Made by a program: the position numbers and the translations under genes. The notes under the pieces are model-generated. The model made no database searches, had not been told where the DNA came from, and was given only the letters and a program-made list of their open reading frames with translations. Positions 4,918 through 63,490 of a stretch of 64,000 nucleotides of DNA are shown one piece after another. Location: positions 3,424,001-3,488,000 of the forward strand of contig OZ243927.1 of NCBI GenBank assembly GCA_965213925.1, in the 5' to 3' direction. Numbering within the stretch: position 1 is the first letter of the stretch; each line of letters starts with the position of its first letter. This DNA comes from Trueperaceae bacterium. Its GTDB lineage: Bacteria; Deinococcota; Deinococci; Deinococcales; Trueperaceae.

Positions 4918-5403
4918 ATGGCTGACGTCCTCACAGCCTGGCGACTTGTCAGACCTAAATATGGCAACCAGGCTGATGCTTTTAGCGGTGAAGGTTCGCG
5001 TCTCTTCGGTGGGCGTTGGAACTCGCCGGGTGTGCGTGTTACTTACGTCAGCTCGAGTCTGTCGCTCGCCACACTAGAGACGCTCGTCCACGCGGACAGG
5101 CGGCGCTTCGAGCGAGACTACGTCGCCTTCAAGCTCTACCTACCTGAAGCGCTCGTGCTCGAGCTGCGCAGTGAGGATTTGCCCGAGGAGTGGCGGGCGA
5201 GGGCCGTGAGCGAGGGCGCGAGGCAAGTTGGAGATGCGTGGCAAGCGGCGCAGGCGAGTGTCGCCTTGTCTGTACCTAGCGTAATCGTGCCTGCGGAGCG
5301 GAACTATCTGCTCAACCCTAGACACCCGCAGTTCAGCGAGCTAACGATTGAAGACCCGCAACCTTTTCGCTTCGACGCACGGCTCGCTGACAAAGGACGA
5401 TAA
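4918..5403 (+). CDS. RES-domain toxin (NAD+-targeting family)
   Basis: AFSGEGSRLFGGRWNSPG, SLATLE, VPSVIVPAERNYLLNPRHP motifs. Confidence 0.9.
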   Translation: MADVLTAWRLVRPKYGNQADAFSGEGSRLFGGRWNSPGVRVTYVSSSLSLATLETLVHADRRRFERDYVAFKLYLPEALVLELRSEDLPEEWRARAVSEGARQVGDAWQAAQASVALSVPSVIVPAERNYLLNPRHPQFSELTIEDPQPFRFDARLADKGR

Positions 5404-5512
5404 AGTCATACTCGCGGCTTTTCATGATCGAGAAGGTACCGCAGTCGCAATGCGTGTGGTCGGGTAGCAGGAGACCGTCACTGGCCTCCCGCCCCTAAGA
5501 GCCGTGCGTGCG

Positions 5513-7948
5513 GTAGGGTAGGATGCCAGCGAGCTGCCTATCAAAGATAGCGCTTTTCCAACATCCCCCCTCCGAACCCCGCATGACCGCTTTCCGTGTC
5601 ACGGGGCTCTCCAGTAATCTCAACATGAAAGTCCTTTCCCGTGGTAGTGCCCTTTATGGATGTCTTGGTGGCAGGTGAGGCAGACCACCAGCGTCTTGCG
5701 TCGGCGAGCCGACATCCTTTGCATCCATTCGGGCCGTGACTTACGCCCTCTTTGTTCAAGGTCTGCCAGTTTTCGGACGTGATGCACTTCGACGTGCTCC
5801 ACCGACCCACAAAGCTCACAGCTTTGCGCTAAAAGGCGGTCCACCACTTCATTACGCCCGTTCCAAATCTTACTGTTCTGGTTGTCGTCCAAGGCTACCC
5901 ATTTGTTCCACCGTAACGGGATGCCGCCAAAGTGGGTGATGAGTGGCTTCTTTTTAGGACCACGGTCCACTTTGACTTGAAGGACTTTATAGCTGCCCTC
6001 CTTGAGGTCGATGGTGGTGCGGTAGCGCCGATAGATTTTCTGGCAACTCGTCCTGAACTTATTCGCCAGCGTTTTCACTAGCGAGAGTTCTGTGACGCGC
6101 TTGAGTCGGCCCAGCGTGTGGAGGTTGTAGGCCATGCGGTAATACTGCACGACCCCGCGGTATTCCGCTTGATATTGGCTGACGATGCTGTAAGCATCGC
6201 TGCTGAGCCTTTGTGGGAGGTGAATGGGCTTGCCGCGTCGCATGTACTTGGCGCAGTGCGCTTTCATGACGTGCGACGGTACCCGGAGTCCGACGCTGCC
6301 GTTGATGCAGCGTTGTCCCCGGTGGTCGTGTTTATCGTCAGCGTGAAGAATGTGGACCTCATAGCCCAGGAAACGCGCTTTCTGCGTGCGCGCGTGGGTC
6401 AGCAGGGTCTTATCCTCGCTAAGCTCAAGCTTGAGTTCGTCGCGTAAGAAGGCGGCAATCTCTTGCTTGATAGCCACGGCCTCGTCTTTTGGCCCTTTCA
6501 GCCCCAGCAGAAAGTCATCGGCATACCTTTGGTACCACAATCGCCGGAAGTTCGGGTCATCGGGGTCGCGCGACGGCATTGTCTGGGCCTGCTGGCTCAG
6601 TTGCCGCGCGGTCTCCCAGTTCCCTGCTTTCCGAGCGTCGTGAGCGGCTTTGGCGATGGCGACATACGGGGGGTAGGTCTTGCGGCGTTCGCCGCGTGTG
6701 TAAGCTGGTATCAGTTCGTGCTCGACAAACTTGTCCAGCCTGTCCAGAACCAGGTTGGTGAGGATTGGACCGACAATCGACCCTTGCGGCACACCGCTGT
6801 AGGTCTGGTGAAAGGTCCAGTTCTCCAGGTAGCCAGCTTCGAGCAGCCCCTTGATAAGCCGCAGGAAGCGGTTGTCGTGGAAGCTCTTCTGCAAGATGTT
6901 CAACAAGACATCGAAGTTAATCTTGTCGAAACACGAGCAGATATCTCCCTCGATAAACCACTTTGTACCTCGACCCTCTTGGGTGACTTTGCGCAAAGCT
7001 GTGTGGCATCCCCGTTTCGGTCGAAAGCCGTGAGAACGGTCGCTGAACCGCGGTTCATAATAGGCTTCCAGGATGGAGCGGATAACTTCTTGAAGAAGTT
7101 TGTCCGACCAGGAAGGCATCCCTAGAGGCCGCATCTTGCCATTCTTTTTGGGAATGTAACGGCGTCGTACCGGCGTCCACCGATACCGCTCTTGGCGTAG
7201 CGCCTCGATGATGGTATCAATTTTCGCTAGGGACATCCCGTCCACGGTTTCGTCCGAGGCACCTGGTGTCAGTGCGCCTTCGTTCTTGTAGAGCTTGGCG
7301 TAGGCGCGCAGGTAGAGGTCAGGCCGGTAGAGTAGGCGATACACCCTTTTAACCGGCAGGCCACGCTGGCCGCGTTCACGTAGGATGGTGAGTACCGTTT
7401 CGGCGGTTCGCATCTCGCGTACCTCACAGTTCCTTTCCATCATGATTACCTGGTCTCCTTCGCCCTGCGAACGGCTCTCCCGCTCTCCCTGGTGGGGCGT
7501 GACGCCCACGACTACTACGAGACCTCCGTTACCTTAGGACTCGCGTCCCTTAGGCAATCCCGTGTTTCGTCACTGAGGAACGTGCTAGAACGACTTAGGC
7601 TCGCCACTCATAGCCTTGGATGAACTCATTGTTCATCGCCCATCAAGCAGAGCGTCATTTGGACGAAACTTGAATCCAAATGTCCTGATGGCGTCGGTGT
7701 ACAGACGTGCTACCGACGGGTGTGCGTGACCACCGCTGGCTATTGGCGTTCAAACAATCCAGTCTTAGCCTTATCATTCAGGCGTTGCAGAGCCGCATCG
7801 TACACGTCTTCCTTTGCGCTCCGCTTTAATGCCATGCTCTTGTCCCCTCCCTCCTTTCGAGCTCAGGTTAGGCATCCGCCTCGGGGTCGTTTGCCCTGAA
7901 CCCCGGCCAACTCCGTTGGCAATTCACTCAATGCGCACCACGGCGCAC
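5513..7948 (-). mobile_element. Inner group II intron (LtrA/mitochondrial-like lineage) inserted in domain V of the outer intron
   Basis: 5' GTGCGCCGTGG at 7948; domain V GAGCCCCGTGACACGGAAAGCGGTCATGCGGGGTTC; 3' ...ATCCTACCCTAC at 5513. Confidence 0.9.
5620..7413 (-). CDS. ltrA: Group II intron reverse transcriptase/maturase with C-terminal HNH endonuclease
   Basis: RPLGMPSWSDK, WFIEGDI, GVPQGS, RYADDF, CELCG..EVHHV..CLTCHQDIH; ATG 7413 follows a GAGGT RBS (ORF track extends to 7509). Confidence 0.95.
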   Translation of the reverse strand: MRTAETVLTILRERGQRGLPVKRVYRLLYRPDLYLRAYAKLYKNEGALTPGASDETVDGMSLAKIDTIIEALRQERYRWTPVRRRYIPKKNGKMRPLGMPSWSDKLLQEVIRSILEAYYEPRFSDRSHGFRPKRGCHTALRKVTQEGRGTKWFIEGDICSCFDKINFDVLLNILQKSFHDNRFLRLIKGLLEAGYLENWTFHQTYSGVPQGSIVGPILTNLVLDRLDKFVEHELIPAYTRGERRKTYPPYVAIAKAAHDARKAGNWETARQLSQQAQTMPSRDPDDPNFRRLWYQRYADDFLLGLKGPKDEAVAIKQEIAAFLRDELKLELSEDKTLLTHARTQKARFLGYEVHILHADDKHDHRGQRCINGSVGLRVPSHVMKAHCAKYMRRGKPIHLPQRLSSDAYSIVSQYQAEYRGVVQYYRMAYNLHTLGRLKRVTELSLVKTLANKFRTSCQKIYRRYRTTIDLKEGSYKVLQVKVDRGPKKKPLITHFGGIPLRWNKWVALDDNQNSKIWNGRNEVVDRLLAQSCELCGSVEHVEVHHVRKLADLEQRGRKSRPEWMQRMSARRRKTLVVCLTCHQDIHKGHYHGKGLSC

Positions 7949-7983
7949 ACTTTCACCGCACACGGCTCAAGCCAATCACGAAG

Positions 7984-8118
7984 CTACCGCGATAAGCTCG
8001 TAGTAGCCCTGAAGATTCGCCCTCTCAGATTGCGAACCCGCCAATTGACAGCTCGCCAGTTCACAGCGTGCCAGTCCGTAGGTCCTTCGGTTTCGTTTGC
8101 AGAGCTTCGGGCTCGCAT
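7984..8118 (-). pseudogene. 44-aa remnant of the outer intron's RT ORF (N-terminal RVT_N-like segment)
   Basis: MRARSSANETEGPTDWHAVNWRAVNWRVRNLRGRIFRATTSLSR*; the W..(I/V).W....V..L..RI..A pattern of chloroplast-like IEP N-termini, located just before domain V. Confidence 0.75.
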
Positions 8119-9060
8119 CTAACTTCCCCTTAGTTGGCAACCTTCAGAACATCTCTCTAGGAGATTGACCAGTCCCACGTCAGCACCCTTTCGGGTTGAG
8201 TATCGGCTCTATCTAGCCCCTTATGATTTCGGGTCGCCTTTCGGCGGCTAGCCTTCGCTTCTTGGGACCTCCTATGCCCGCTGGAGCGTTCGGCGTTCCT
8301 TACGGTTCGCTTACCTGCAACAGGACTCCAACGGGGTTTCCGTGTTCCACTTGTGTGAGCTGCGACCGGGTTAGGCGTGCTCTCTACTCCGGGGTCATGG
8401 TGTCCTCGTGCAGAACGCGCGTACTCTCTGCACCTGTTGAGGCGAGATACCTTATCCTTAGCCTCGACCCGACCATGCCTTATCAACCATCCTTCGACAA
8501 ACCGAACTAACGGAGCTTTGACCGAGCATTCACGTTCGTTCGCCTTACCGGTCTTTCCCTCACCCGAGTCTCTACGATGGTTTAGATTCTCTTAGGCTTT
8601 ACCTCCAGCTTCACACCTTGCCATTACTGGCAACGCATGTGGAAGTCGGGAATGAGCCTGGACACTGGCTCAGAGTTCTTTTCCTCCTTCCTAACTCACT
8701 CACTTCAAGCGACTTCACGTCGCACACGCGCGCGTTAGTCGCACAATGGTTCGTGTGTTGAAAAAGGGTTAAGGGGAAGGTCGAATAACGATGTAATACG
8801 GCTTTCGGGTAACTCCCCTAGGGATTACCTCGAGCGTAGCGAGTAGAAAGAACTACGGATTTCAATGAGTGCGTTCGGACTTCGGTGAAACCCACTGCTC
8901 GTCACTTTGTGGTGTCATGTTGATAGAGCACATAAGAAGCTCAGCTGAGCGCTAGTTCGGCTACAAAGATACTTGTGGTTGTACTTAGCCACATGACGGT
9001 ATACTCTGGGCATCCAAGGTTTGAAGACAAGCCTAGTTCTTGCCGAGCGGAGGGAGTCCA

Positions 9061-49753: not shown

Positions 49754-50300
49754 TACGCTGGTTGGCACAAAACGTGGCGCTAGGCGATTTTCTTTGCTCC
49801 AAACAGCCTTGGTTGCTCAAAATGACTTAGAGAAAATAAGCTCGGAAGGGGCAAGGCGGCGCGCATCTCGGTAAACGACCGTTTTTGCAATCTGTTCAGC
49901 GTCTGGCTGTGACTGGTTAAACCACCTACGCTCATTGCAACCGAGTTTCACTGTCAGATTTATCGTCTAATTCTATCCACAGGGCAGGTCGAATACCGCC
50001 ACTATCTTTAGGTCTGCCATAGACACCATCGCCACGAACATAAATACGTCCGTATCTATTTACACTGGCAGCAGTGCGACCATAATAGCCTGGTGAGCGA
50101 AGTCGCCACCAATAGAATTTACTTTATCTTCTTTAGTGACCCCGACGGCAACAGTTAGGCAGTGCAGCAAATCTCGAGCCGCAGTTGAACGAGGTAATTT
50201 TTATACGTGTGAACAGGCCGAGGCGTGCGTAAGTCTTCTGCGTGTGGTCGGGTAGCAGGAGACCGTCACTGGCCTCCCGCCCCTAAGAGCCGTGCGTGCG

Positions 50301-52736
50301 GTAGGGTAGGATGCCAGCGAGCTGCCTATCAAAGATAGCGCTTTTCCAACATCCCCCCTCCGAACCCCGCATGACCGCTTTCCGTGTCACGGGGCTCTCC
50401 AGTAATCTCAACATGAAAGTCCTTTCCCGTGGTAGTGCCCTTTATGGATGTCTTGGTGGCAGGTGAGGCAGACCACCAGCGTCTTGCGTCGGCGAGCCGA
50501 CATCCTTTGCATCCATTCGGGCCGTGACTTACGCCCTCTTTGTTCAAGGTCTGCCAGTTTTCGGACGTGATGCACTTCGACGTGCTCCACCGACCCACAA
50601 AGCTCACAGCTTTGCGCTAAAAGGCGGTCCACCACTTCATTACGCCCGTTCCAAATCTTACTGTTCTGGTTGTCGTCCAAGGCTACCCATTTGTTCCACC
50701 GTAACGGGATGCCGCCAAAGTGGGTGATGAGTGGCTTCTTTTTAGGACCACGGTCCACTTTGACTTGAAGGACTTTATAGCTGCCCTCCTTGAGGTCGAT
50801 GGTGGTGCGGTAGCGCCGATAGATTTTCTGGCAACTCGTCCTGAACTTATTCGCCAGCGTTTTCACTAGCGAGAGTTCTGTGACGCGCTTGAGTCGGCCC
50901 AGCGTGTGGAGGTTGTAGGCCATGCGGTAATACTGCACGACCCCGCGGTATTCCGCTTGATATTGGCTGACGATGCTGTAAGCATCGCTGCTGAGCCTTT
51001 GTGGGAGGTGAATGGGCTTGCCGCGTCGCATGTACTTGGCGCAGTGCGCTTTCATGACGTGCGACGGTACCCGGAGTCCGACGCTGCCGTTGATGCAGCG
51101 TTGTCCCCGGTGGTCGTGTTTATCGTCAGCGTGAAGAATGTGGACCTCATAGCCCAGGAAACGCGCTTTCTGCGTGCGCGCGTGGGTCAGCAGGGTCTTA
51201 TCCTCGCTAAGCTCAAGCTTGAGTTCGTCGCGTAAGAAGGCGGCAATCTCTTGCTTGATAGCCACGGCCTCGTCTTTTGGCCCTTTCAGCCCCAGCAGAA
51301 AGTCATCGGCATACCTTTGGTACCACAATCGCCGGAAGTTCGGGTCATCGGGGTCGCGCGACGGCATTGTCTGGGCCTGCTGGCTCAGTTGCCGCGCGGT
51401 CTCCCAGTTCCCTGCTTTCCGAGCGTCGTGAGCGGCTTTGGCGATGGCGACATACGGGGGGTAGGTCTTGCGGCGTTCGCCGCGTGTGTAAGCTGGTATC
51501 AGTTCGTGCTCGACAAACTTGTCCAGCCTGTCCAGAACCAGGTTGGTGAGGATTGGACCGACAATCGACCCTTGCGGCACACCGCTGTAGGTCTGGTGAA
51601 AGGTCCAGTTCTCCAGGTAGCCAGCTTCGAGCAGCCCCTTGATAAGCCGCAGGAAGCGGTTGTCGTGGAAGCTCTTCTGCAAGATGTTCAACAAGACATC
51701 GAAGTTAATCTTGTCGAAACACGAGCAGATATCTCCCTCGATAAACCACTTTGTACCTCGACCCTCTTGGGTGACTTTGCGCAAAGCTGTGTGGCATCCC
51801 CGTTTCGGTCGAAAGCCGTGAGAACGGTCGCTGAACCGCGGTTCATAATAGGCTTCCAGGATGGAGCGGATAACTTCTTGAAGAAGTTTGTCCGACCAGG
51901 AAGGCATCCCTAGAGGCCGCATCTTGCCATTCTTTTTGGGAATGTAACGGCGTCGTACCGGCGTCCACCGATACCGCTCTTGGCGTAGCGCCTCGATGAT
52001 GGTATCAATTTTCGCTAGGGACATCCCGTCCACGGTTTCGTCCGAGGCACCTGGTGTCAGTGCGCCTTCGTTCTTGTAGAGCTTGGCGTAGGCGCGCAGG
52101 TAGAGGTCAGGCCGGTAGAGTAGGCGATACACCCTTTTAACCGGCAGGCCACGCTGGCCGCGTTCACGTAGGATGGTGAGTACCGTTTCGGCGGTTCGCA
52201 TCTCGCGTACCTCACAGTTCCTTTCCATCATGATTACCTGGTCTCCTTCGCCCTGCGAACGGCTCTCCCGCTCTCCCTGGTGGGGCGTGACGCCCACGAC
52301 TACTACGAGACCTCCGTTACCTTAGGACTCGCGTCCCTTAGGCAATCCCGTGTTTCGTCACTGAGGAACGTGCTAGAACGACTTAGGCTCGCCACTCATA
52401 GCCTTGGATGAACTCATTGTTCATCGCCCATCAAGCAGAGCGTCATTTGGACGAAACTTGAATCCAAATGTCCTGATGGCGTCGGTGTACAGACGTGCTA
52501 CCGACGGGTGTGCGTGACCACCGCTGGCTATTGGCGTTCAAACAATCCAGTCTTAGCCTTATCATTCAGGCGTTGCAGAGCCGCATCGTACACGTCTTCC
52601 TTTGCGCTCCGCTTTAATGCCATGCTCTTGTCCCCTCCCTCCTTTCGAGCTCAGGTTAGGCATCCGCCTCGGGGTCGTTTGCCCTGAACCCCGGCCAACT
52701 CCGTTGGCAATTCACTCAATGCGCACCACGGCGCAC
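50301..52736 (-). mobile_element. Inner group II intron, copy 2
   Basis: Same boundaries within domain V of the outer intron. Confidence 0.9.
50408..52201 (-). CDS. ltrA: Group II intron RT/maturase/HNH, copy 2
   Basis: Protein identical to 5620-7413. Confidence 0.95.
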   Translation of the reverse strand: MRTAETVLTILRERGQRGLPVKRVYRLLYRPDLYLRAYAKLYKNEGALTPGASDETVDGMSLAKIDTIIEALRQERYRWTPVRRRYIPKKNGKMRPLGMPSWSDKLLQEVIRSILEAYYEPRFSDRSHGFRPKRGCHTALRKVTQEGRGTKWFIEGDICSCFDKINFDVLLNILQKSFHDNRFLRLIKGLLEAGYLENWTFHQTYSGVPQGSIVGPILTNLVLDRLDKFVEHELIPAYTRGERRKTYPPYVAIAKAAHDARKAGNWETARQLSQQAQTMPSRDPDDPNFRRLWYQRYADDFLLGLKGPKDEAVAIKQEIAAFLRDELKLELSEDKTLLTHARTQKARFLGYEVHILHADDKHDHRGQRCINGSVGLRVPSHVMKAHCAKYMRRGKPIHLPQRLSSDAYSIVSQYQAEYRGVVQYYRMAYNLHTLGRLKRVTELSLVKTLANKFRTSCQKIYRRYRTTIDLKEGSYKVLQVKVDRGPKKKPLITHFGGIPLRWNKWVALDDNQNSKIWNGRNEVVDRLLAQSCELCGSVEHVEVHHVRKLADLEQRGRKSRPEWMQRMSARRRKTLVVCLTCHQDIHKGHYHGKGLSC

Positions 52737-52771
52737 ACTTTCACCGCACACGGCTCAAGCCAATCACGAAG

Positions 52772-52906
52772 CTACCGCGATAAGCTCGTAGTAGCCCTGA
52801 AGATTCGCCCTCTCAGATTGCGAACCCGCCAATTGACAGCTCGCCAGTTCACAGCGTGCCAGTCCGTAGGTCCTTCGGTTTCGTTTGCAGAGCTTCGGGC
52901 TCGCAT
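52772..52906 (-). pseudogene. 44-aa remnant of the outer intron's RT ORF, copy 2
   Basis: Same as 7984-8118. Confidence 0.75.
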
Positions 52907-53699
52907 CTAACTTCCCCTTAGTTGGCAACCTTCAGAACATCTCTCTAGGAGATTGACCAGTCCCACGTCAGCACCCTTTCGGGTTGAGTATCGGCTCTAT
53001 CTAGCCCCTTATGATTTCGGGTCGCCTTTCGGCGGCTAGCCTTCGCTTCTTGGGACCTCCTATGCCCGCTGGAGCGTTCGGCGTTCCTTACGGTTCGCTT
53101 ACCTGCAACAGGACTCCAACGGGGTTTCCGTGTTCCACTTGTGTGAGCTGCGACCGGGTTAGGCGTGCTCTCTACTCCGGGGTCATGGTGTCCTCGTGCA
53201 GAACGCGCGTACTCTCTGCACCTGTTGAGGCGAGATACCTTATCCTTAGCCTCGACCCGACCATGCCTTATCAACCATCCTTCGACAAACCGAACTAACG
53301 GAGCTTTGACCGAGCATTCACGTTCGTTCGCCTTACCGGTCTTTCCCTCACCCGAGTCTCTACGATGGTTTAGATTCTCTTAGGCTTTACCTCCAGCTTC
53401 ACACCTTGCCATTACTGGCAACGCATGTGGAAGTCGGGAATGAGCCTGGACACTGGCTCAGAGTTCTTTTCCTCCTTCCTAACTCACTCACTTCAAGCGA
53501 CTTCACGTCGCACACGCGCGCGTTAGTCGCAGCAGGATAGAGATTCTAAATGTCCGGAGAGCAACCCCTTTCCAAAAGAAAAGCCGTAGAAAATATCGAA
53601 CAAAGCTGAGCTTCAACGCGCCTTAGAAATCGGAAAACTATGAAAAATTTCCTCAAAGTCAAAGTGCTTCTTTTTACCCTTCACCACCAACAACTTCAA

Positions 53700-61709: not shown

Positions 61710-63401
61710 GGCTCTTACGAAAGTTGTGTGGTCAGGCAGCCAGCAGCACCTTTTGCCTGAGCAGGTCAAAGCTAGCGCGTCCATACATCTGCCGCTTGAG
61801 CAACTTGAGCTTAGTAATTTTACCCTCGGTCGGTCCATTGCTCCACGGCAGAGTTAATGCCACTTCGATAGCCGCCTTATCGTTGCTGAAACCTTTCGCC
61901 AAGCGAGCGAGTTCATCAACGCCGCTCGCTCTTTATGGTGTCGCTGAGCCAGCGTTGAAACGCCGCTATAGTTTCATGGGGTGCTCGTTCCTTGCACCTG
62001 AATAGCGCGACGAAGCGTTGCACCAGGTCGTAGCAACGCTCCGCTTCTTGCGCACCCTCGAAGAGCCGCTCGAGTCGTTTGAAATCGTGCTGAGTTAGCG
62101 CCCCTTTTGAGCTTGTAAATAAGCGCGTCGCCTCATACGCCGAATAACGCATGACCCTTTGTCTCTTGTCTGCCCTCGAAAAGTCAATGCCCGCTTCCAA
62201 CTCGGCAAAGTAGGCGTAGACGAGACCATAAGCACCGGTGAAGCCCCGCGCCGTGATCTCCCGGTAGAGCTGCATCTTGTTGCCGATGCCCGCATCCCAT
62301 CTTTGTTTGAGATAGGGTTCGTAGGGCGCTAAGATGCGATTTTTCTGTCTATCAGGATACGTACCCCGAGCAAACCAACGGCTCAGCGTGCTCCTGCCGA
62401 CACCGAGCTTGGCAGCAATCTTAGGAAGACTAAAGCCGTCCGCTTCTAAACGCTTGGCTTCTTCGAAGATGGCTCGGCGTTTGCGGCGCGTCTCGAGCTT
62501 CGCTTGCAGCGCCCTTTCGTAGCTGGTGCGGACGTGAATCTGCTGAGGCACATCGCCGCCAGATTCGTGTCCATCATCAGAAAGCTCAACCAGATACTTT
62601 TTATGGCGCTCGCACCAGCGTTTCAAGAGGTCGCTGAAGTTTTTGAGCAGATGCCAACGGTCGGCGACCTGAACCGCTTGGGGTGCGCCCTCGTCGCAAG
62701 CGGATTTGTATTCCTGAGAGCGATCGCGAGAGATGGTTTCGACGCTAGGATGCGCCTTTAGCCAGTCCACCAGGGTTGCTGAGCTTCTGTCGGGTAGAAC
62801 GTCGACCACTTCGCGTTTTTCCAGGTCAAGCAACAGGGTGCCGTAACTTTCCCGTTTCCGAATAGCAAAATCGTCCACACCCAGCACGCGCGGTGTTGCT
62901 CGTGTCACTAAGCTCTGGGTTCGGACAAGGTCGAGCGCGCTATCGTGGCTCACAGGCATCTCTAACTGTCCGAGCAGGTCTTCGCTCGCTTTAGCGCTTA
63001 GAGAGGTCGCCACACGACGTTGCGCGTCGCTCAAGCGTTTGCTTCTATGTGCGTAACGCGCCAGCCAGGGGTCGAAAGACTCTGCGAACGTTCTTCTCTC
63101 ACAGCAACGATTTAAGCAGTAGAACCGTTTGTCTTTGAGACGCAACTGAACTGTGTGATCAGCCAGGGGCAAATCAGCAGGATGGCGTTGGTAGTAACCA
63201 CTTACCTTGTTTGATAGCGCCTGGCAGAGCGGACAATTCGCCTCCGTTTTACGTGAGCCGTGAGCACCAAACCACCTTCGCGAACTTTGAACGCTTCGAT
63301 GACACACGCTGGAAACAGGATATCGAGCATCCTTCATGCTGTTCGCTAGCCCTTCAAGATGCAAGACCCAACCCAGTTCCCACAATTCTTTCGTAAGAGC
63401 C
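61710..63401 (-). mobile_element. ISL3-family insertion sequence (degenerate)
   Basis: Terminal inverted repeats GGCTCTTACGAAAG at 61710 and 63401. Confidence 0.85.
61732..63330 (-). pseudogene. ISL3 transposase with frameshifts near 63250 and 61925
   Basis: CPLC, VLGVDDFA, QVADRWHL, WSNGPTEG..TKLKLLKRQMYGRA. Confidence 0.85.
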
Positions 63402-63464
63402 ATCAAGTGCCCAAATTAGATGGTATACGCAATAATGGAAAGGCTCGGGTGCGTAGCGTCCTTG

Positions 63465-63490
63465 TGCAACGAACGCGCGCGTTAAACGCA
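63465..63490. repeat. GCGCGC-core dyad site 17
   Basis: (cttg)tgca-acga-ac-GCGCGC-gt-taaa-cgca(gaag). Confidence 0.85.

Follow-up and report, generated by a model that had tools for sequence, protein, structure and literature searches.

The window analysed here, a 64,000-nt stretch of contig OZ243927.1 of a Trueperaceae bacterium (assembly GCA_965213925.1, positions 3,424,001 to 3,488,000 of the forward strand; all coordinates below are counted from its first nucleotide), contains two identical twintrons, i.e., group II introns nested within group II introns, each of which interrupts the same variant of an intergenic 26-bp dyad repeat. We consider it likely that they represent a two-layer retroelement, in which an outer intron of the IIB1 type pairs with the dyad and an inner intron of the mitochondrial-like (ML)/IIA type homes into domain V of the outer one, the events being sequential. 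A first-pass annotation of this DNA, made from the letters alone, had proposed a group II intron specialised to home into the dyads. Its observations were partly confirmed and its interpretation is partly supported; it had missed that the outer intron has no open reading frame (ORF) and that the domain V of this intron is split by the inner one.

Two identical twintrons occupy the same dyad variant

The repeated unit is 3293 nt long and is found at 5451-8743 and 50239-53531, in both cases on the minus strand, with an offset of 44788 between the copies and 100% identity. The sequences of the copies diverge directly beyond the unit limits, and no neighbouring cassette DNA is common to them. Each unit splits a 26-bp dyad 18/8, 2 nt past its GCGCGC core. 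When the flanks are rejoined they read TGCG ACTAAC GCGCGC GT|CACA CGCA, which is the exact 4+6+6+6+4 format of the dyad family described below, and the two occupied dyads are identical across all 26 bp. The proposal that two twintron copies sit at the same dyad position was thus borne out by the identity of the copies, their limits and the rejoined flanks.

Searches against Rfam gave two group II intron matches per copy on the minus strand, in copy 1 at 5611-5513 (RF00029, domains V/VI) and at 8673-8588 (RF02012, D1-D4 type 7). The former (46 bits) stops at 5513, 54 nt short of the end of the outer intron. The unit is a twintron, as removal of the inner intron restores the domain V of its host. 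No additional intron fragments were found at the other dyads of the window. The parts of the unit, including the gene for the intron-encoded protein (IEP) with its reverse transcriptase (RT) domain, are as follows.

8726..8743, minus strand: 5' exon half of the occupied dyad in copy 1, TGCGACTAACGCGCGCGT (outer arm, N6 arm, GCGCGC core and GT), common to both copies
7949..8725, minus strand: 5' part of the outer intron, 777 nt, with GUGCG, domains I-IV, and the 5' strand and GAAA loop of domain V, no ORF (RF02012, nhmmer homology and fold)
5513..7948, minus strand: inner intron, 2436 nt, GUGCGCC...CCUACCCUAC, ML/IIA-type, in the outer domain V 2 nt past the GAAA tetraloop (RF00029; ends align with 20-30 relatives)
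5620..7509, minus strand: IEP of the inner intron, intact, 629 aa as listed, with RT, maturase and HNH endonuclease domains (Pfam RVT_1, Intron_maturas2, AI2M-like_HNH)
5459..5512, minus strand: 3' part of the outer intron, 54 nt, with the domain V 3' strand (CGCACGCACGGCUC) and domain VI with its bulged A, ending in GAC (sequence and fold)
5451..5458, minus strand: 3' exon half of the occupied dyad in copy 1, CACACGCA, read directly after the end of the outer intron
50239..53531, minus strand: copy 2 of the unit, with dyad halves at 50239-50246 and 53514-53531
Copy 2 introns, minus strand: outer intron 53513-52737 and 50300-50247, inner intron 52736-50301, IEP 50408-52297, with the same Rfam matches as copy 1

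The outer intron is probably an ORF-less IIB1 ribozyme

After removal of 7948-5513 by script, the outer intron has a length of 831 nt and runs from 8725 (GUGCG) to 5459 (ending in CUACCCGAC; the unit itself ends in CUGCUACCCGAC). The 5' strand and loop of its domain V, GAGCCGUGUGCGGUGAAAGU, extend to 7949 and are followed at once by a second GUGCG; the matching 3' strand is CGCACGCACGGCUC, such that removal of the inner intron rebuilds a domain V of 34 nt, GAGCCGUGUGCGGUGAAAGU|CGCACGCACGGCUC. The rejoined GAGCCGUGUGCGGUGAAAGUCGCACGCACGGCUC folds as a domain V hairpin, and domain VI with its bulged A folds as expected. Group II introns were recognised by a GUGYG start, a domain V with an AGC triad, a 2-nt bulge and a GNRA loop, and a bulged A located 7-8 nt from an AY 3' end. 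The outer element has the GUGYG start, the 34-nt domain V and domain VI, together with the RF02012 match in domain I. Autonomous mobility was taken to require an RT/maturase ORF in domain IV; no such ORF is present in 8725-7949, which contains only short chance frames.

To place the outer intron we compared it with the 55 loci that were obtained by searching genome contigs with the IEP of the inner intron (protein identity 61-77%), none of which comes from the genome of the window. Among these loci nhmmer detected three relatives of the outer 5' part, all of them weak, starting at L023:1186, L025:5419 and L007:6809; the homologues in L023 and L025 carry a protein of the 510-aa class in domain IV. 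A blastn search of the outer intron against the same loci returned the domain V match only, and a search of the loci for the 5'-end motif found no additional hosts of the CL1 type. Against a plasmid collection, there were only matches with 21-50% coverage and ~70% identity (introns of Rhizobium, Sinorhizobium and Streptomyces), none of which included the domain I region.

The D1D4-7 Rfam family is common to the outer intron (39 bits), L023 (110.6 bits) and L025 (68.9 bits). The alignment of the outer intron to this model (8588-8673) is without ~60 consensus positions that L023 and L025 have, and a subdomain of its domain I may have been deleted. The L023 protein matches the T. elongatus TeI4h RT (6me0; E-value 5e-162), the L025 protein is 58% identical to that of L023, and TeI3c/4c have been described as IIB1 introns (PMC8643678). 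Furthermore, the outer intron has the IIB1/CL1 layout of the domain I element ID(iv), namely GCUCCG|UUA|GUUCG with the partner strand CGGAGU, and the same layout is found in L023, L025 and L007. Because the D1D4-7 family is common to the outer intron, L023 and L025, and because the L023 protein matches the TeI4h RT, we classify the outer intron as IIB-type, in agreement with the first-pass annotation. The Rfam family, the protein of L023 and the ID(iv) layout (with its EBS2a position; see below) together indicate that it is an ORF-less IIB1 (CL1-type) ribozyme. Since its domain V is broken and it has no ORF, the outer intron would be inactive until the inner one has spliced, and would need an RT from elsewhere.

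The inner intron appears to belong to a lineage that homes into domain V

The IEP of the inner intron aligns with LtrA (5g2x) over residues 53-619 with an E-value of 1e-115, compared with 4e-26 for the TeI4h RT. As it is far closer to LtrA, we assign the inner intron to the ML/IIA lineage, on the basis of the IEP domains and the domains V/VI match. Its predicted exon-binding sites (EBS) are the following.

7665..7670, minus strand: inner EBS1 AGUUUC in a hairpin loop, 5/6 pairs with GAAAGU, i.e., the host tetraloop plus 2 nt (alignment of 27 sequences)
7720..7726, minus strand: inner EBS2 CGCACAC, 7/7 pairs with GUGUGCG in the 5' strand of the host domain V, -15..-9 (co-variation)

Both assignments draw on relatives. 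EBS1 is commonly ACUUUC among them and co-varies with the exon in L027, L031/L032, L005 and L048; for example, it is CGUCUC in L031/L032 (exon GAGACG) and CGCGUUU in L027 (exon AAAUGCG). For EBS2, co-variation is seen over 8 bp in L038 and over 7 bp in each of L025, L018 and L033.

We then asked where these relatives reside by comparing junctions across L001-L049 with those of the window (7949/7948 and 5513/5512). At 19 of the 22 loci with both flanks, the junction is clearly a domain V (recognisable by its AGC triad, its 2-nt bulge and a GNRA loop) that the intron splits 2 nt past the tetraloop; in this count L002, L003 and L004 were included after a register offset of 1-2 nt had been allowed. 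Two of the others, L031 and L032, had a domain-V-shaped hairpin at the junction, and L027 had unrelated sequence. At loci with a single flank, examined by eye, domain-V-like sequence was present in 3/3 of the 5' flanks and 9/11 of the 3' flanks. The loci span cyanobacteria, Alpha- and Gammaproteobacteria, Chloroflexota, Acidobacteriota, Bacteroidota, Planctomycetota and Thermodesulfobacteriota. Their hosts include introns of the D1D4-7 (CL1) type and introns beginning with GUGCGAUUC (L008 and L009), a start motif given as typical of IIB2 introns (PMC4649490), and a host protein is present in some hosts and absent in others.

Taken together, the junctions and their co-varying EBS sequences indicate that the inner intron is one of a lineage whose homing site is domain V of other group II introns, with hosts of at least two classes and in many phyla. 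Neither homing into domain V nor introns in GCGCGC dyads turned up in a full-text literature search, though earlier intron surveys could contain such descriptions. Compared with the targeting of the outer intron, the domain V-homing nesting (i.e., an ML-type intron inside an ORF-less CL1-type host) is the new and more unusual part.

At three loci (L021:5658-9824, L009:1388-7151 and L030:3994-5698) we observed at least two intron-protein genes or gene fragments in tandem upstream of the inner-type intron, which suggests deeper nesting or intron arrays.

The dyad is an abundant intergenic repeat

Across the window the dyad has the format TGCG-N6-GCGCGC-N6-CGCA (26 bp). The slightly relaxed pattern TGC-N7-GCGCGC-N7-GCA had 7 exact matches, compared with 0.03 expected from shuffled sequences. 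When up to two mismatches were allowed there were 22 matches: 15 read as intact, empty dyads (at 363, 4374, 13615, 14610, 16599, 20645, 23161, 25126, 27977, 32002, 35823, 37577, 38421, 39822 and 63465), 2 are the right-hand parts of the occupied dyads, and those at 1094, 25487, 55035, 57015 and 62088 were left out of the dyad count as the exact core is absent. All 15 empty dyads lie between ORFs. The dyad family is therefore real, and the pattern count against shuffles upholds the earlier description of it as an abundant element, as well as the earlier tally of two filled dyads (both with the ACTAAC arm) and 15 empty ones.

The N6 arms are drawn from a few recurring half-site types (GTTCGT, ATCTCT/GTCTCT, AACTCG, ATCACA, AACACG, GTTTGC and GTTAAG) that are freely combined. 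The two arms of a dyad are often non-complementary to each other, so the dyad is not simply a hairpin. An invariant centre of 6 bp flanked by arms of 10 bp gives it a layout like that of a recombinase core site; no integrase was seen within the window.

Base pairing between the outer intron and the dyad

Three segments of the outer intron are relevant to the recognition of its target.

8416..8422, minus strand: EBS1 ACGCGCG, in the 12-nt loop of hairpin 8433-8408 (stem GUGCAGA/UCUGCAC), pairing with exon -7..-1 CGCGCGT
8506..8512, minus strand: EBS2 as first proposed, CGUUAGU, 7/7 pairs with exon -14..-8, overlapping ID(iv) (8516-8511) and the 3-nt linker
8503..8509, minus strand: canonical register, with EBS2a U at 8509, linker A at 8508 and EBS2 GUUCG at 8507-8503 (homology to L023, L025 and L007)

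The first-pass annotation had placed EBS1 at 8422-8416, where it covers the invariant core of the dyad, and had asked for a fold of domain I to locate the loop. In that fold ACGCGCG occupies the 12-nt hairpin loop, and the homologous loops of the three relatives match their own, differing exons at 6/6 positions over -6..-1: GGGUUU with AAACCC in L023, GGGUCU with AGACCC in L025, and UUUACC with GGUAAA in L007. This co-variation confirms the predicted placement of EBS1.

For EBS2 the outcome was mixed. According to the EBS2a-IBS2a rule, where IBS denotes the intron-binding site in the exon, ID(iv) is followed by a 3-nt linker of the form N-EBS2a-A and then by a 5-nt EBS2, IBS2a is located beside IBS2 at about -14, and EBS1 lies in a terminal loop (PMC8643678). 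The four introns compare as follows (bracketed bases are unpaired).

Window: ID(iv) 5' strand GCUCCG, linker UUA, EBS2 GUUCG, ID(iv) 3' strand CGGAGU
L025: ID(iv) 5' strand GGACCG, linker UAA, EBS2 UCUAC, ID(iv) 3' strand CGGUCC
L023: ID(iv) 5' strand (A)CGUCG, linker UGA, EBS2 UUACA, ID(iv) 3' strand CGGCG(G)
L007: ID(iv) 5' strand (A)GUCCG, linker UCA, EBS2 UUUCC, ID(iv) 3' strand CGGAU(G)

The canonical 5-mer pairs with its own exon at 5/5 positions in each of L023, L025 and L007, and the EBS2a pair can be formed in 4/4 introns. The earlier heptamer CGUUAGU consists of the last 2 bp of ID(iv), the linker and the first two bases of the canonical EBS2. Its 7/7 complementarity to the exon stands, but its register is probably wrong, given that it overlaps elements fixed by three relatives. 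In the canonical register, EBS2 matches the occupied ACTAAC arm at 4/5 positions (with C x U at -12) plus EBS2a, and matches ACGAAC or GCGAAC arms at 5/5 positions plus EBS2a; dyads with such arms are all empty.

The outer EBS2 loop, CGUUAGUUCGGUUUGUCG (8494-8512; outer intron nt 214-232), is 8 nt longer than in the three relatives. It contains three overlapping segments (CGUUAGU, GUUCG and GUUUGU) that are complementary to ACTAAC, ACGAAC and ACAAAC arms, respectively. This enrichment in arm complementarity is weak, as 24/809 sequence windows score at least as high, among them an unrelated region near nt 375.

Specialisation for the dyad family is plausible

The outer intron recognises its target through EBS1 on the invariant core plus T (CGCGCGT) and EBS2/EBS2a on the adjacent N6 arm. 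A pairing of 7 nt at EBS1 and 5-7 nt at EBS2 agrees with the earlier view that recognition depends on base pairing and not on structure. The exact 14-mer ACTAACGCGCGCGT occurs in the window at the two occupied sites only. When the 15 empty dyads were read in both orientations, 15/30 orientation-sites had a perfect 7-nt IBS1, and the best four (63465+, 39822-, 27977+ and 23161+) were identical to the 14-mer at 13/14 positions. Because the exact target is present only at the occupied sites, and because relatives of the intron reside in unrelated sequences, the targeting of the outer intron is best explained as ordinary base-pair-guided IIB1 retrohoming into a repeated target.

Is the intron also specialised for the dyads, as had been claimed? 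Both copies in the window (2/2) are in dyads, and EBS1 covers the invariant core. In the canonical register, moreover, the commonest arm (A|CGAAC) is a perfect partner for EBS2 and EBS2a, a fit that hints that the intron's history with this repeat family extends past the two occupied sites. On the other hand, only two insertions are available, explaining the choice of arm variant requires the non-canonical register, and relatives insert elsewhere. We thus view specialisation as plausible, and as suggested rather than shown. The first-pass annotation had named insertion of other copies at unrelated sequences as evidence that would count against its claim. The three detectable relatives of the outer ribozyme all sit in unrelated targets (0/3 in dyads), each with an EBS1 matched to its own exon, and the dyad pattern was found in 0/55 of the fetched loci. 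As for occupancy, either the non-canonical 7-bp register is used, or there was a single homing event into an identical site combined with rare mobility.

The targets of the three relatives differ from one another. The L023 relative is inserted in ..TGTAATTAAACCC / ..CUGUAAUUAAACCC, its 3' end being ambiguous. The L025 relative follows directly after a perfect 20-bp inverted repeat (5376-5418; GGGTCTATCTACATAAAGAT acc ATCTTTATGTAGATAGACCC), with both EBS1 and EBS2 complementary to the hairpin's 3' arm; a terminator-like position is here combined with long EBS pairing. The L007 relative (6740-6830) begins with UUGCG instead of GUGCG and lies in GGGGTAAA/GGGGAA tandem repeats, to which its EBS1 and EBS2 still match.

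A further claim was that insertion disables the site. This is reasonable for the DNA, in which the dyad is split 18/8 and a double-strand function would therefore probably be lost; in RNA, by contrast, splicing would restore the dyad.

A sequential model and its alternatives

In the sequence of events that we favour, the unit would be transcribed from outside, and the inner intron, aided by its own protein, would splice first and thereby restore the 34-nt domain V of the outer intron. Two routes would then be available to the outer intron: splicing, by which the dyad is rejoined in RNA, or reverse splicing into a further dyad that carries the same IBS. Re-invasion of domain V in the new outer copy by the inner intron would finally yield two identical twintrons. 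The anatomy of the unit, its limits, its pairings, its homologies and where its relatives lie are established by the sequences, whereas this order is an inference from the interruption of the outer domain V by the inner intron, and any adaptation to the dyads as a family is likewise inferred. The RT for the ORF-less outer intron might be a CL1 protein encoded elsewhere or the protein of the inner intron. Twintron layers that move separately have a precedent in T. elongatus (PMC2882425).

Several findings weigh against this model. No sigma-70-like promoter was found in the ~300 nt upstream of either copy, and the window contains no RT of the outer intron's own class. To our knowledge, there is no precedent for a IIA-type protein mobilising a IIB1 ribozyme. 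The outer ribozyme could itself be impaired, given its 39-bit domain I score and the ~60 missing model positions, and pairing of the inner EBS1 with the site it now occupies is interrupted at -2 by a G x G mismatch. With respect to targeting, the orientation-sites that match the canonical EBS2 perfectly (23161+, 27977+, 27977- and 63465+, in three dyads) are empty; the +1 C of the occupied sites is also present at only one of these four, 23161+. Finally, the case for specialisation is drawn from two insertions, both in one and the same site variant.

One alternative is that the outer intron is a dedicated dyad specialist, in which EBS2 CGUUAGU selects the ACTAAC arm, which would be why insertions are present in exactly the two ACTAAC dyads and in none of the other 15. 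It would explain why ACTAAC sites are occupied in 2/2 cases and others in 0/15, it makes use of 14 contiguous pairs (7/7 at 8512-8506 and 7/7 at EBS1), and the long EBS2 loop additionally holds GUUCG and GUUUGU for the ACGAAC and ACAAAC arms. Yet this EBS2 would have to borrow from ID(iv) its last 2 bp, and with them the conserved U-N-A linker, although co-variation in three relatives fixes both elements; a single homing event into an identical site could, at n=2, account for the agreement of occupancy with variant; the relatives occupy unrelated targets; and the enrichment of arm complementarity is weak (24/809). We regard such a specialist as possible but doubtful. It is quite improbable, in our judgement, that the twintron moves as one piece, with the outer ribozyme working while the inner intron is in domain V and the inner protein providing RT and endonuclease. 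Both layers are indeed 100% identical between the copies, the inner RT is the sole RT in the window, and mobility of composite introns has been raised as a possibility for the T. elongatus twintrons (PMC2882425). However, it is the distal stem of the catalytic hairpin that is interrupted, the strand needed for domain V to form is itself bound by the inner EBS1 and EBS2, and according to a review the inner intron must often splice before the outer one can fold (PMC4424553).

A different possibility is that copy 2 is the product not of retrohoming but of a process at the DNA level: site-specific recombination mediated by the dyads, gene conversion or segmental duplication. The dyad is laid out like a recombinase core site, its arms look shuffled between sites, and the occupied dyads are identical over 26 bp. 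But the edges of the dyad are exactly the limits of the unit, the split made by the intron lies beside the core and not within it, there is no adjoining cassette DNA in common, and the intron boundaries and EBS-IBS pairing are exactly as retrohoming predicts. Moreover, 18 and 8 nt of flanking homology are too short for homologous recombination. We consider copying at the DNA level to be extremely unlikely. A larger duplicated segment as the source of the second copy is excluded by the divergence directly outside the unit limits.

Relation to known introns

The closest parallel to the sequential model is provided by the T. elongatus TeI3/TeI4 introns (IIB1/CL1), which represent the ribozyme and RT lineage of the outer intron's nearest ORF-bearing relative. 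There, ORF-less derivatives are mobilised in trans, twintrons arise by separate homing of their layers, recognition is almost entirely by EBS-IBS pairing, and introns insert in conserved sites of other mobile elements (PMC2882425). In those twintrons, however, the ORF-less intron is the inner one and resides in domain IV, between two start codons of an ORF-bearing host of the same family (PMC2882425), whereas in the window the ORF-less intron is the outer one, and the inner intron is of another class (ML/IIA) and located in domain V. The targets also differ: an insertion sequence element or an intron in T. elongatus, and an intergenic dyad repeat here.

Insertion at abundant intergenic palindromic elements (terminators and integron attC sites) is a feature of IIC and IIC-attC introns. 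These are described as recognising a DNA stem-loop and a short IBS1, with no EBS2 and with proteins that have no endonuclease domain (PMC4424553). We took as criteria insertion directly after a stem-loop, an IBS1 of 3-4 nt, no EBS2 and an endonuclease-less IEP. The outer intron is instead inserted inside the dyad, and as a IIB1 ribozyme it uses 12-14 nt of EBS1 and EBS2 pairing (7-nt EBS1 and 5-7-nt EBS2); the arms are often non-complementary, and a hairpin is not the common feature of the dyads.

Multi-copy targets that offer many harmless homing sites are another point of likeness, with RmInt1, which reportedly resides in ISRm2011-2, and with the Pseudomonas putida KT2440 intron. In the latter case, 2/9 copies are linked to repetitive extragenic palindromic (REP) elements (PMC1525189). 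The intron of the window differs from both in that its target is a 26-bp, GCGCGC-centred dyad of which only one arm variant was seen occupied.

For the inner lineage, the nested introns of Methanosarcina acetivorans are comparable in that they home site-specifically into other group II introns, a perpetual homing site. To go by the title of the work on them, their targets are said to be related intron ORFs; the target of the inner lineage is the catalytic domain V, in hosts of at least two classes and many phyla. A review describes the M. acetivorans introns together with bacterial twintrons, with no mention of domain V in its account of them (PMC4424553), and the inner intron of a Trichodesmium twintron has been located in domain I (PMC4649490). 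Ll.LtrB (ML, IIA) resembles the inner intron in the near-full-length alignment of its protein LtrA with the IEP and in having EBS1 and EBS2 in domain I loops. Ll.LtrB resides in a relaxase gene, however, and the inner lineage in an intron domain V.

If the outer intron truly tracks the dyads, it would represent a natural retargeting of a IIB1 intron to an abundant intergenic repeat purely via its EBS loops, would inform how introns find safe, multi-copy sites, and would mark the dyads as accessible, whether as exposed single strands or in another way. The domain V-homing lineage would be of broader importance than dyad targeting: it would explain a recurrent class of bacterial twintrons, and it would be an intron lineage that parasitises the catalytic core of other introns and provides the host intron with a built-in on/off switch. 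One may go further and picture a widespread lineage of 'introns of introns', for which our searches yielded no description, with domain V as the homing site and with hosts that are silenced until excision; as domain V is conserved in every group II intron, such a lineage could invade hosts of different classes (CL1, CL2-like and others). In the present case there may be a two-part unit, in which the host, with an enlarged EBS2 loop that carries several dyad-arm registers, supplies the genomic address (the dyads) and the guest supplies RT and endonuclease. We offer this as a tentative extension that is unlikely to hold as a whole. The basic picture of group II intron mobility is left unchanged by these findings.

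Gene context of the dyads

The dyads separate gene modules of 1-5 kb, which comprise pairs of a regulator and an enzyme and one RES-Xre toxin-antitoxin pair. When 24 kb of the window were compared with the plasmid collection, a fragment of an ABC transporter was the sole match. A gene for an ISL3-family transposase (61916-63406) is located 59 nt from the dyad at 63465-63490, placing a second mobile element beside the repeat.

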